Source: an archaeon (GTDB taxonomy: Archaea; Iainarchaeota; Iainarchaeia; Iainarchaeales; 1-14-0-10-31-34). From it: 15,393 nucleotides of DNA. A program made the translations under genes and the position numbers. The stretch covers positions 1 to 15,393 of the forward strand of contig JBDRFE010000030.1 in NCBI GenBank assembly GCA_043819075.1, written 5' to 3'. The notes under the pieces were generated by a model that searched no databases, had not been told where the DNA came from, and saw nothing but the letters and a program-made list of their open reading frames with translations. Below, one piece after another: positions 3 through 4,680 of this stretch (position 1 is the first letter of the stretch; every line of letters starts with the position of its first letter).

Positions 3-239
3 TTTTTCAGAAAAGACTGCAGTTCAACTGAAAGATTAATGAAAGAAGTCCTGACTTTAAGCCCCGGACTGTATTACGCGCAAAACTATATTACTGCCTG
101 CCAGGAAGCCAAAATAAAAGGATTATATTCAGATGACTGGCTAAGCCAGATATGGCTTTTCCTGATAATAGCAGTTTTAGTTGCAGTGGCATACTATTTC
201 ATTAAAGTCAAAAAAATAACTATTACAGCAAAAAAGTAA
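3..239 (+). CDS. 3' end of a membrane-anchored hypothetical protein (5'-truncated by the window)
   Basis: The frame of the 39..239 ORF is open back to position 3 (FFRKDCSSTERLMKEV...). It ends in a hydrophobic helix (IWLFLIIAVLVAVAYYFI) followed by a basic tail. Confidence 0.6.
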   Translation, partial: FFRKDCSSTERLMKEVLTLSPGLYYAQNYITACQEAKIKGLYSDDWLSQIWLFLIIAVLVAVAYYFIKVKKITITAKK

Positions 240-256
240 AATAAAAAAAGAGGGCT

Positions 257-1567
257 TTAAGCCCTCTGCATTTGCTTGTATGCAGCCAAATCCAGCAAAC
301 CATGCCCTGAAAAATTAAAGGCAATAATTTTTTGTTGTTTTTCTTTTTTTGCCTTTAACGCACAGTCAATTGCTGCATTTATTGCATGAGCTGTTTCTGG
401 TGCAGGAATTATTCCTTCACTGTTGGCAAAAAGTCTTGCCGCTTCAAAAGTTTCTTTTTGGTTGTATGCAACTGCTTTCATAAAACCAAGCTTTTTCAGC
501 AGTGAAAGAGAAGGAGAATCCCCGTGATATCTTAGGCCTCCTGCATGAATTGGCTCTGGAATAAAGTCATAGCCCACAGTATACATTTTAATTAATGGAG
601 TCATTTTTCCTGTGTCGCCAAAATCATACCTGTATTCTCCTTTGGTTAGAGTTGGAACTGCTTTTGGTTCAACTGCAATCACTTCAAAGTCTTCTTTTCC
701 TTTTAGTTTGTCTTTCATAAAAGGATAAACCATTCCTGAAAAATTGCTTCCTCCTCCAACACAGCCAATTAATACATCAGGTTTTTTGTCAATTGATTCA
801 AACTGTTTGATTGTTTCCAAACCAATTATTGTCTGATGCATTAAAACATGGTTTAAGACAGAGCCAATAGAATAAAATGTTTTTTCGTTTGTTGCTGCTT
901 TTTCTATTGCCTCGCTTATTGCAATGCCTAAAGAACCATTAAAGTTCTTTTTTTCTTTCAGCAATTGTTTTCCAATATTAGTGTTTTCTGAAGGAGAAGC
1001 AAAAACTTTTGCCCCAAACAAATTCATTAAAATTTCCCTGTAAGGCTTCTGCAAAAAAGAACTTCTCACCATAAAGACTTCTGCTTTTAGTTCATTAAAC
1101 ATTGCTGCCAAAGAAACAGCTGAACCCCATTGCCCTGCACCGGTTTCAGTGGAAACATTTTCAAACCCCTGTTTTTTTCCATAATATGCTTGAGCTAAAG
1201 CAGTGTTTGGTTTATGCGAACCAACAGGGCTTAAGTCTTCTCTTTTATAATAGATTTCTATCCCTTTTGGAAGGGAAAGTTTTTTTTCCAGTCTTAAAGC
1301 CCTGTATAAAGGCCTTGGCCTGCCCAAAAAAATGTATTGCTCTCTTAATTCTTCTGGAATCCTGATAAAAGATTCTGAACTGAATTCCTGTTTAATGCAT
1401 TCTTTTGGAAACAAAACTTCAAAGTCTTGTGGCTTTACAGGCTGCATTGTGCCTGGATTCAAAGGAAAAGGAAGTTCTTCAGGCAAATCCGGAAGAATGT
1501 TGTAGTAATGTTTTGGCAAATCTTCAACAGGCAATTGGATGACGCCAAAGACTCCTCCCTTCCTCAA
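257..1567 (-). CDS. trpB: Tryptophan synthase beta chain, TrpB2 type (PLP enzyme). The true N-terminus probably comes from ATG 1601 via a +1 frameshift at 1550-1544.
   Basis: Motifs GSHKPNTA (PLP Lys), [41 protein letters not shown] and SGHGLLDL, plus the TrpB2-type N-terminal extension (YYNILPDLP). The in-frame TTG at 1567 has no ribosome-binding site. Confidence 0.95.
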
Positions 1568-1982
1568 AGTTTTTTGTTTTAATTTCTTTTATTTTGTTCA
1601 TTGTATTACCTCCTATTTTATAGTTTATCCTGAATAATTCAAGAACATGTTTTGTTGTTTTGCAGGGAAAAAGGTTTTCAATTAAAGCCCTTGAAATCAC
1701 ATCTGATTTTGTTGCACTGAACCCTTTTCTTCTGTTCAATAACTTTATTTCATCAGAAAAATAGTCAACCAAAAAACAGGGAATTTTTTTTATTCCAAGA
1801 AGCCTGAAAGCTTTTACCCTGTGATGGCCGTCAAGGATTGTAAGACTTGTTTTGTCTATTACCACAGGGAAAAAAAGAGTCTTGTTTTTTCTGATTGAAT
1901 TAATGATTTTTAAGAGCCTTGAAGGAATTATTTTTTCATGCGGTTTAAGAAGCGAGATTTCAATTAATTTTATTTTGTTCAA
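1524..1982 (-). CDS. ParB/Srx-fold protein, SerK/SbnI-like putative free-serine kinase
   Basis: LKPHE...RL...PVVID...ILDGHHR...LG..KIP...VDY is the ParB/Srx signature with the PHE glutamate of SerK/SbnI. It overlaps the trpB2 ORF by 44 nt. The TTG start lacks an RBS and directly follows a CTT TGG C site. Confidence 0.75.
1544..1613 (-). promoter_or_regulatory. Internal start (SD GGAGGT 1613-1608, ATG 1601) and prfB-like +1 frameshift cassette GGGAGG-AGT-CTT-TGG-C (1559-1544)
   Basis: Read directly from the minus strand. CTT (1550-1548) is in the frame of ATG 1601; TTT GGC (1549-1544) is in the TrpB2 frame. Confidence 0.75.
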
Positions 1983-2062
1983 GCCAAAGGCTTTCGCTGT
2001 TCTGGCAGCTCCCTTCAGAAAAAAATTTTTTTGAGCTATAATTAACTAAAACAGAATCAGAA

Positions 2063-2095
2063 TTAATTTTGCCAAAGTCGCTCAACTCTTTGCAT
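2063..2095 (-). CDS. Putative leader peptide MQRVERLWQN (10 aa) containing frameshift site 1 (CTT TGG C, 2077-2071)
   Basis: ATG CAA AGA GTT GAG CGA CTT TGG CAA AAT TAA; the ATG lies 23-30 nt downstream of a TATA box, consistent with a leaderless transcript. Confidence 0.65.
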   Translation of the reverse strand: MQRVERLWQN

Positions 2096-2117: not shown

Positions 2118-2125
2118 TATTTAAA
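2118..2125 (-). promoter_or_regulatory. Archaeal TATA box (TTTAAATA) for the leader/kinase/trpB2 transcript
   Basis: Consensus-like TATA at -30..-23 relative to ATG 2095. Confidence 0.55.
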
Positions 2126-3424: not shown

Positions 3425-3499
3425 GCCGGTGTAGCTCAGCCTGGTTAGAGCGTTTGACTCATAATCAAAAGGTCGAGGGTTCAAATCCCTCCACCGGCA
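3425..3499 (+). tRNA. tRNA-Met (CAT), elongator type, no intron, CCA not encoded
   Basis: Acceptor GCCGGTG/CACCGGC, anticodon arm TTTGA-CTCATAA-TCAAA, T arm GAGGG-TTCAAAT-CCCTC. Confidence 0.93.
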
Positions 3500-3663: not shown

Positions 3664-4620
3664 ATGAAGTATGTTGAGAATTCTGAAAAAAGAATAAAAC
3701 TAATTAAAGGAAAACAAAAAGAGTTATTGCATGAAGCAAAGAGTAAAGCAAAATTTAGCTGGTCTGAATTAGCCGCATATCTTAACATTTCTAGCGGATA
3801 TCTTAGAAATGAGTTAAGAAAAGAAGTTTGGACGTTAAGAGAAGATTTATATAGAAAGTTAGTGAAGTTAGCAGGGCAAAACTATGATACTGAAATAGAA
3901 AAAATGCTTGAGAGCAACTGGGGGCAAATAAAAGGTGGCAAAAATAGTTATAGCCAGCCTAAAAAATCTAGGTTATTAATAACAGAACCTAATGAAACTC
4001 TCGCAGAATTAATTGGAATAATGCTTGGAGACGGCAACATGTATGAGATGAAAGAAAAAAGCATTTATCAAACAAGAGTATTTGGGCATAAGGTTGATGA
4101 TTGGGATTACATAACAAAATGGGTGAGTAATATATTTGAAAAGTTGTTTGACATTACTCCTCAAATTAATTACTTAAAAGACGTGCAAGTTGTAATACTA
4201 TTCAAACAAAGCAAACACTTAAATTTCACTTTAAAACATTTTGGACTGAAACCAGGAAACAAGGTGACAAACAACGCTTCAATACCTCAATGGGTTTTTG
4301 ATAACAAAAAATATCTTGAAGCTTGTATTAGGGGCCTTATAGACACTGATGGCAGTATATGCCCAAAAACAAAAAGACACAAAACACCTAGTATTTGGTT
4401 CTGCAATGCTTCTCCAAATATAAGAAGAGACTTTAATAAAGCCTTAAAAATTTTAGGATACAGTGTTTCTAAATGGGTGGTGAAGAAAAACAGAAACAGT
4501 CAAGACTGTTCAATAGGAAATGCTAATGCTGTGTGGAGATACTACAAAGAAATAGGATTTAGCAATCCAAAACATAAAAAAAGATTTGAAATGTTCTGGA
4601 AAAAAGCCCCGATGGTCTAG
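3664..4620 (+). CDS. Free-standing two-motif LAGLIDADG (DOD-type) homing endonuclease-like protein with N-terminal HTH-like region
   Basis: LAELIGIMLGDG and IRGLIDTDGS motifs; SWSELAAYLNISSGYL is HTH-like; C-terminal IGFSNPKH. The last 15 nt lie inside tRNA-Glu. Confidence 0.88.
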   Translation: MKYVENSEKRIKLIKGKQKELLHEAKSKAKFSWSELAAYLNISSGYLRNELRKEVWTLREDLYRKLVKLAGQNYDTEIEKMLESNWGQIKGGKNSYSQPKKSRLLITEPNETLAELIGIMLGDGNMYEMKEKSIYQTRVFGHKVDDWDYITKWVSNIFEKLFDITPQINYLKDVQVVILFKQSKHLNFTLKHFGLKPGNKVTNNASIPQWVFDNKKYLEACIRGLIDTDGSICPKTKRHKTPSIWFCNASPNIRRDFNKALKILGYSVSKWVVKKNRNSQDCSIGNANAVWRYYKEIGFSNPKHKKRFEMFWKKAPMV

Positions 4621-4680
4621 TTCGGTTAAGGATTCTGGCCTCTCAAGCCAGCGACGCGGGTTCAAATCCCGCTCGGGGCA
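4606..4680 (+). tRNA. tRNA-Glu (CTC)
   Basis: Acceptor GCCCCGA/TCGGGGC, anticodon arm CTGGC-CTCTCAA-GCCAG, T arm GCGGG-TTCAAAT-CCCGC. Confidence 0.95.

Follow-up and report, generated by a model that had tools for sequence, protein, structure and literature searches.

The gene for TrpB2 in a 15,393-nt stretch of archaeal DNA, referred to here as the window, has no usable in-frame start codon and is connected to its SD-led ATG across a +1 break at a TGG codon. The best reading of this break, and of similar breaks ahead of other Trp genes, is with high probability a programmed +1 frameshift, in which the ribosome slips at a hungry UGG codon and Trp-tRNA is thereby sensed. The architecture is conserved, it is restricted to Trp genes and to UGG, and it is accompanied by complementarity to the anti-SD. 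From these observations we infer the shift itself, and the pattern of the sequences makes its dependence on tryptophan likely as well.

The locus lies on the minus strand of the window (Table 1). The GGAGGT element, ATG 1601, the string GGGAGG-AGT-CTT-TGG-C, and the unshifted 25-aa peptide that the initial annotation had described were all found in place on this strand. From ATG 1601, 18 codons run to CTT 1550, which is followed by TGG and then by the 0-frame stop TGA 1526-1524. This ATG shares its frame with the upstream ParB_N/SerK-like ORF, which extends past it as far as site 3, and the TrpB2 body, read from GGC 1546, is in the +1 frame. At sites 1 (2077) and 2 (1989), CTT-TGG-C likewise closes a short frame and the +1 frame carries on. 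The leader ATG is not preceded by an SD, and the +1 leader frame ends at the stop TGA 1962 without a shift at site 2. The genome that holds the window (G000; 1.24 Mb, 90.55% complete) contains 206 copies of the CTTTGGC 7-mer; at this genome rate, three copies inside 550 nt have a Poisson probability of approximately 1.6e-5, the frame condition being left aside. GGAGG-NNN-CTTTGGC has a single occurrence in the same genome. Elsewhere in the window, an ORF with a LAGLIDADG domain (3664-4620, plus strand) was found between tRNA-Met (3425-3499) and tRNA-Glu (4606-4680), overlapping the start of the latter.

Table 1. Features of the trpB2 locus in the window, listed in the direction of transcription
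Feature	Position	Strand	Description
TATA-like box	2118..2125	-	30 nt 5′ of the leader ATG; from sequence; putative promoter
Leader uORF	2063..2095	-	ATG 2095; P-site CTT is codon 7; TGG 2074; stop TAA 2065
Shift site 1, CTT-TGG-C at 2077	2071..2089	-	Weak SD-like tract with one mismatch, common register
+1 leader frame	1960..2073	-	29 codons up to site 2; U-rich
Shift site 2, CTT-TGG-C	1983..1989	-	Entry to the kinase frame; without SD-like tract
SerK/SbnI-like short ORF (ParB_N fold), putative free-serine kinase	1524..1985	-	Sequence and fold match
Start belonging to trpB2 itself: ATG 1601 with strong SD	1599..1614	-	SD GGAGGT 1613-1608, -11.3 kcal/mol
Shift site 3	1544..1559	-	GGGAGG 1559-1554, AGT, CTT 1550-1548, TGG 1547-1545, C 1544; prfB register
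TrpB2 body, +1 frame	257..1546	-	429 aa; 447 aa including the 18-residue leader; TIGR01415 and PRK12391

A pseudogene or an assembly error was considered as the origin of the breaks. The contig of an independent study covers positions 1400-2162 gap-free with 12 substitutions, and no indels in the locus were listed in any of the four sequencing runs compared. All three sites are retained in two relatives (G001 and G005), in which site 1 is kept and the counterpart of site 2 reads TTT-TGG. Breaks of the same kind occur in three families, and no stop was found inside any of the TrpB2 matches. This conservation effectively refutes both possibilities. At window position 1992, another base was present in sequencing runs X1 and X3, with which the codon before site 2 has T as its first base, the state also seen in G001 and G005. 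A purine tract at 2005-2016 (minus strand), about 20 nt before site 2, is nearly identical to the tract preceding site 3 in a second copy of the locus (L025); it is kept in G001 and G005 and is possibly the relic of an older site.

The TrpB2 body scored above the cut-offs of both TIGR01415 (646 bits; cut-off, 518.85) and PRK12391 (656 bits; cut-off, 366). Its in-frame starts are three TTG codons, for which the SD energies were +0.8, -3.0, and -1.7 kcal/mol. A start at MRKGG (TTG 1567) was rejected, as it has no SD (+0.8 kcal/mol) and, of the three closest copies checked, two have no start codon at this position. In the 90.55% complete assembly of G000, trpA and trpE were not found, nor were TrpRS and tRNA-Trp; TrpRS was seen in all five family relatives. 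The second kinase-trpB2 copy (L025; G000:C21:5444-6973) is 86% identical, has the same break at site 3, and is truncated by a contig end. Because its downstream gene has an 81% counterpart at window positions 3-236, this copy may stem from a co-binned relative and not be a paralogue.

The short ORF upstream of trpB2 matched the free serine kinase 5x0b of the PDB by sequence (E = 5e-13), and a fold search also placed free-serine kinase first. With the NF053625 (SerK) profile, the ORF scored 72.7 bits against a cut-off of 380, covering positions 17-98 of 244, and is thus not a full-length member; it is about half as long as SerK and lacks the middle part. In the alignment, the Glu at the position of SerK E30, mutants of which are named in the titles of PDB entries, and the DGHHR motif are kept in the short kinase and are invariant in 5/5 sequences. 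The C-terminal motif of SerK is also retained. No Trp is encoded in 1602-1985, and neither G001 nor G008 has a start codon ahead of the conserved HEK motif. The kinase is linked to trpB2 in five of the six genomes having a kinase match. Judging from this likeness and linkage, the ORF is likely to be a free-serine kinase. Since SerK produces phosphoserine, as stated in the accessible part of PMC5120207, and TrpB2-class enzymes are cited as O-phospho-L-serine-dependent in that of PMC11917138, the two genes would form a route by which indole is salvaged to Trp via phosphoserine. No earlier description of a SerK-TrpB2 pairing was found in the open literature. A full-length SerK/SbnI-like ORF of 255 codons with an in-frame ATG occurs at another locus (L126; G128:C81), where it does not adjoin trpB2.

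Across the phylum, 22 trpB2 genes were found in 21 of 215 genomes, and 20 of them were readable, two being cut at contig ends. The +1 break at TGG behind an SD-led, out-of-frame ATG was present in 14 of the 20 (10 with CTT and 4 with GCC), and six were intact. Outside the phylum, all 78 trpB2 genes had in-frame starts, and none had the TGG break. Together with the lack of an SD at the MRKGG start, these results support the earlier proposal that TrpB2 is entered at UGG by one +1 shift from its own SD-led ATG. An SD of -7 kcal/mol or better preceded 11 of 12 trpB2 entries. Alternative in-frame starts in shifted genes included an ATG with an SD of -7.4 kcal/mol (G091) and TTG codons with -6.0 kcal/mol (G091 and G092), and four genes of family f10 have a weak-SD in-frame ATG at residue 4. 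In a tree of 36 rows, including 16 of the 78 outside genes, phylum trpB2 formed one clade, within which the entry shift changes at least four times. One Trp was found in each of the 20 phylum TrpB2 bodies, compared with 2-7 in the 78 outside bodies. A tRNA-Trp(CCA) gene sits between the leader and trpB2 at L007, L027, L028, L029, L034, and L038; at L035 and L036, a degenerate tRNA, called as Lys, takes its place. In-frame starts were observed at the TrpB1 loci (L008-L023) and in trpS of five family relatives.

Most Trp codons of the leaders are in the +1 frame. In 43 leaders, TGG was counted 75, 6, and 8 times in the +1, 0, and +2 frames, respectively. Their +1 frames, to which the +1 leader frame of the window is the counterpart, are 28-78 codons long (the minimum set by the rule was 25) and end in Trp codons: Trp occurs within the last 10 codons in 36/43 leaders, and 28/43 have two or more. 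The tandem Trp codons are in the +1 frame, and frame 0 has one Trp codon. The shift is positioned at codon 6 or 7 in 37/43 leaders. None of the 43 leader ATGs is preceded by an SD, and a TATA-like box was found before 35 of them, compared with 5% of random windows and 1/12 trpB2 entries; the trpB2 entries thus show the reverse of the leader pattern, with the SD present and the box mostly absent. U-tracts were present in 33/43 leaders versus 39% of a control that is weak because it mixes in coding DNA.

The leaders of family f10 (L007, L032-L036, and L038) have GTC-TGG-A, show no SD excess, and fold over UGG into a hairpin with an energy of -13 to -22 kcal/mol, and they perhaps represent a second sub-mechanism. 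These hairpins, together with the weak in-frame starts seen in several genes, would also fit leader-peptide attenuation without any shift, in which the enzymes reinitiate at weak in-frame codons. Such attenuation is very improbable, because the Trp codons are concentrated in the +1 frame, the kinases of G001 and G008 have no start before the conserved motif, the SDs of the window trpB2 starts are no better than -3.0 kcal/mol, and the window leader folds no better than its shuffles (z = -0.30). No terminator hairpin was found in the window. In archaea, translation is coupled to transcription, and transcription terminates at U-tracts. Under the frameshift reading, since non-coding +1 frames ending in Trp codons precede a tRNA gene and U-tracts are present, the gate at site 1 would probably also govern transcriptional read-through, with ribosomes carried over the U-rich stretch. 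We regard transcriptional coupling via the leader, as judged from these patterns, as evenly balanced between acceptance and doubt.

An 18-base cassette was found at 24 places in 23 of the 215 phylum genomes, with no matches to the reversed pattern. Depending on the place, its +1 frame encodes TrpB2, TrpB1, the kinase, or a racemase whose gene is followed by trpS, or it forms a leader ahead of tRNA-Trp and trpE. The same 18 bases stand before the kinase of G008 and before trpB2 of G007 and of G143; an entry private to TrpB2, as had been suggested, is contradicted by the kinase of G008 and by the weak SD at site 1 of the window. In G032, two shifts in series lead to TrpD, and the match in G044 precedes tRNA-Trp-like DNA and a phosphoribosyltransferase. 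Every traced case had UGG in the A site and a Trp gene downstream. Frameshifting at a constitutive, set ratio, which would lower expression with no response to tryptophan, has a precedent in Ty1, where CUU and a slow codon shift at 40% without a signal (accessible part of PMC5009743); it is nevertheless quite improbable in view of this restriction, of the tandem Trp codons that end the +1 leaders, and of the avoidance of Trp in the products. At L143 and L147, the cassette enters a gene of the Asp/Glu racemase family, behind which trpS lies in L147; the product is a possible D-Trp salvage enzyme. The tRNA-Trp-like genes after the leaders of L137, L138, L139, and L149 appear to be interrupted just 3′ of the anticodon, probably by introns. 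A threonine version of the cassette, searched as one pattern, was at background level (7 matches versus 8 in the control). Among 1101 long ORFs of G000, a search for SD-led out-of-frame leaders gave seven rows; three of them belong to the two trpB2 copies, and the remainder were unconvincing.

Among 98 metagenome matches to the 18-mer, the architecture was present in 16, and the other 82, which were without it, were treated as chance or undecided. Six matches (L221, L243, L247, L250, L251, and L289) enter a different TrpE, whose named neighbours are records of Thermoplasmata or Euryarchaeota. In 12 of 120 such TrpE homologues, the called N-terminus contains the cassette as read in +1, and a protein atlas returned the TrpE family alone. 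The presence of the cassette in Thermoplasmata-like TrpE suggests a second phylum, the lineage being taken from protein likeness.

Anchoring on trpE, without use of the motif, matched 43 genomes; 39 loci were examined, and 36 were usable. Sites fitting the codon rule were found before trpE in 29 of the 36, and TrpE itself is entered in the +1 frame in four genomes. The corresponding figures for trpB2 were 18/19 usable loci versus 5/76 outside loci, none of the five being a gene entry, with the qualifications that the NYY rule was set post hoc after the data had been seen, that the outside controls are mostly GC-rich bacteria, and that kin are non-independent. Three of 67 rule matches were inside tRNA-Trp genes and were dropped, leaving 64 sites; the statistics are those of rule-picked sites, and the trpB2 entries of L025 and L030 were missed by the rule. 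The P codon was CTT in 45/64 sites versus 12/596 control NYY-TGG pairs, and C followed the A-site codon in 39/64. Fifteen of the 64 P codons were GTC (7), GCC (4), GTT (2), or CCC (2), and some types re-pair poorly in +1. At the window sites, CUU can re-pair on UUU in +1; the GTC, GCC, and CTC sites of relatives re-pair poorly. Frame correction at the RNA level by polymerase slippage or editing, or four-base decoding, would be compatible with the DNA data alone, but both are highly improbable: only three T occur at the sites, GCC and GTC sites have no T run, conservation extends to the codon phase, the SD register, and the position at codon 7, and nearby tRNA-Trp genes were called with a normal CCA anticodon.

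Pairing with the anti-SD was computed against the located 3′ end of the 16S rRNA of G000. The 12 nt upstream of site 3 pair with this end, which is the genome's own, at -10.0 kcal/mol, an energy reached by 0.2% of 596 in-frame NYY-TGG sites. The kinase sites had been described as having no clear SD; this was borne out at site 2 (-0.2 kcal/mol). At site 1, the SD is mismatched and weak; its energy of -5.1 kcal/mol falls within the top 11% of controls. No stimulator was found at site 2, where neither an SD nor a 3′ structure beating shuffles was detected, and RNA structure near sites 1-2 or near site 3 was no better than shuffles (z = -0.30 and +0.32, respectively). The mean energy of 47 distinct contexts was -5.95 kcal/mol versus -2.29 kcal/mol in controls; as kin are not independent, p values are overstated. 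Synonymous re-encoding with the codon usage of G000 gave a mean of -4.52 kcal/mol, and none of 300 re-encodings reached the observed mean, so the constraint is partly on nucleotides.

The prfB register, with a helix of at least 4, was found in only four of the 47 contexts (window, G001, G005, and G094). A register four bases further upstream was found at the same helix length in 26/47 contexts versus 4.7% of controls; in this common register, 3 nt separate the end of a GGUGAU-like tract from the P codon. Site 1 fits the common register weakly, and site 2 fits neither. Eight GTC/CTC contexts showed no SD excess (p = 0.18). Because the common register resembles initiation spacing, a stimulatory role would be less secure for it than for the prfB register. 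The claim that the internal SD stimulates the shift gains from the strong pairing at site 3, but an SD in the prfB register is not the general stimulator (4/47). The TGG break is conserved at homologous loci (14/20). On these sequence grounds, we lean toward SD stimulation at site 3.

The frameshift mechanism would operate as follows. When Trp-tRNA is ample, a ribosome whose P site holds CUU and whose A site holds UGG would keep the frame and reach a stop a few codons on. When Trp-tRNA is scarce, the ribosome would pause, peptidyl-tRNA(Leu) would re-pair on UUU, GGN would be read, and translation would continue in +1. Sites 1 and 3 would probably be assisted by an SD-like tract whose end lies about 3 nt upstream of the P codon. 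The window would have three gates on a single transcript, two into the SerK-like kinase and one from ATG 1601 into TrpB2. Gate 3 would also be reachable from the kinase frame, and the predicted products are TrpB2 of 447 aa from ATG 1601, a kinase of 189 aa after two shifts, and a kinase-TrpB2 fusion of 611 aa after three. A fusion would be impossible in G005 and G008, in which the stop codon of the kinase overlaps the ATG of trpB2. Several observations speak against the frameshift reading: some shifted genes have alternative in-frame starts, some P codons re-pair poorly, no stimulator was found at site 2, six of the 20 phylum trpB2 genes are intact with at least four changes of the entry shift on the tree, and TrpRS and tRNA-Trp were not found in G000.

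The initial annotation had proposed a tiered response, in which a single shift with the help of an SD induces TrpB2 first, and the kinase follows, through two unassisted shifts, only when starvation deepens. The differences in SD strength are consistent with such tiers, as the order of sites 3 > 1 > 2 (-10.0, -5.1, and -0.2 kcal/mol) also holds in G001 and G005, and the SD at ATG 1601 is strong in all four genus-level copies. Several observations make the tiers doubtful, however, and the proposal is less likely than not. Because only the first leader of the window has a TATA-like box, trpB2 would be downstream on the same transcript, and a box of their own was found at just 1/12 trpB2 entries. 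The kinase alone is gated in G008, where trpB2 is intact, and an unshifted kinase lies behind trpB2 in G007. The overlap of the kinase stop with the trpB2 ATG in G005 and G008 suggests coupling, and TrpB2 enzymes are reported to need phosphoserine (accessible part of PMC11917138), which the kinase would make. In the window, serial action of the sites is more probable than tiered action.

On a broader scale, the case is about as strong for as against the view that archaea of at least two phyla regulate Trp genes by a portable frameshift cassette that replaces attenuator hairpins and repressors. One shift would lead either into an enzyme or to tandem Trp codons, which would hold the ribosome over a U-rich stretch so that transcription reaches tRNA-Trp and the operon. 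Serial gates would multiply the response, with a kinase-TrpB2 fusion being possible, and an anti-SD helix reaching the E-site codon, in a register other than that of prfB, would be an archaeal +1 stimulator. If true, this would represent natural amino-acid sensing by frameshifting and chromosomal +1 recoding in archaea, and it would be evidence that archaeal ribosomes scan for anti-SD pairing during elongation. As gene callers mis-start or drop shifted genes, the biosynthetic ability of these small-genome archaea would then have been misread. The cassette is shorter than 25 nt and is directly testable in reporters.

In bacterial trpL attenuation, a leader peptide with Trp codons precedes trp operons, and alternative terminator and antiterminator hairpins form. 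In contrast, the leaders described here have a single Trp codon in frame 0 and tandem Trp codons in +1 only, and the shift often leads directly into the enzyme. Laboratory prfB constructs with UGG replacing UGA have reportedly been made. The window shares with prfB (RF2) the CUU-U slip, a slow A site, the C after it, a short 0-frame product, and the logic of negative feedback, and the likeness to E. coli prfB (AGGGGG, 3 nt, CTTT, TGA, C) that had been pointed out agrees with the accessible part of PMC12421855. However, an internal SD spaced 3 nt from the slip codon is shared by site 3 only, most sites of the lineage being in another anti-SD register. Nor is the site a prfB cassette, as it has UGG in place of an in-frame UGA or UAA and belongs to trpB2 or other Trp genes and not to the RF2 gene. 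Because the A site holds the sense codon UGG, the sensor would be charged tRNA, unlike the release factor of prfB. The sites also differ from bacterial prfB in being archaeal, in serving several genes, and in lying in series.

A P-site CUU, a slow sense codon in the A site, and a +1 shift are shared with Ty1 CUU_AGG_C and with hungry-codon shifting, as described in the accessible part of PMC5009743, a review of 2016 in which no examples were known of frameshifting under starvation that yields a useful trans-frame protein. The hungry codon here, unlike in those cases, is that of the pathway's own product. The use of a frameshift as metabolite sensor and effector is shared with the +1 shift of antizyme, which responds to polyamines at a stop codon, whereas Trp-tRNA and a sense codon are involved here (PMC8211752, accessible part). 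Archaeal fucA1 is likewise a chromosomal archaeal gene needing a shift, although its shift is -1 at a heptamer; in the accessible part of the same 2021 review, fucA1 is the only reported chromosomal archaeal case, and +1 is listed only for the virus HSTV-2. The accessible part of PMC13759103 contained nothing on a Trp-gene frameshift switch, and no description of one was found in the open literature, subscription journals being outside this coverage. The system therefore appears to be new, with parts known from prfB and Ty1.
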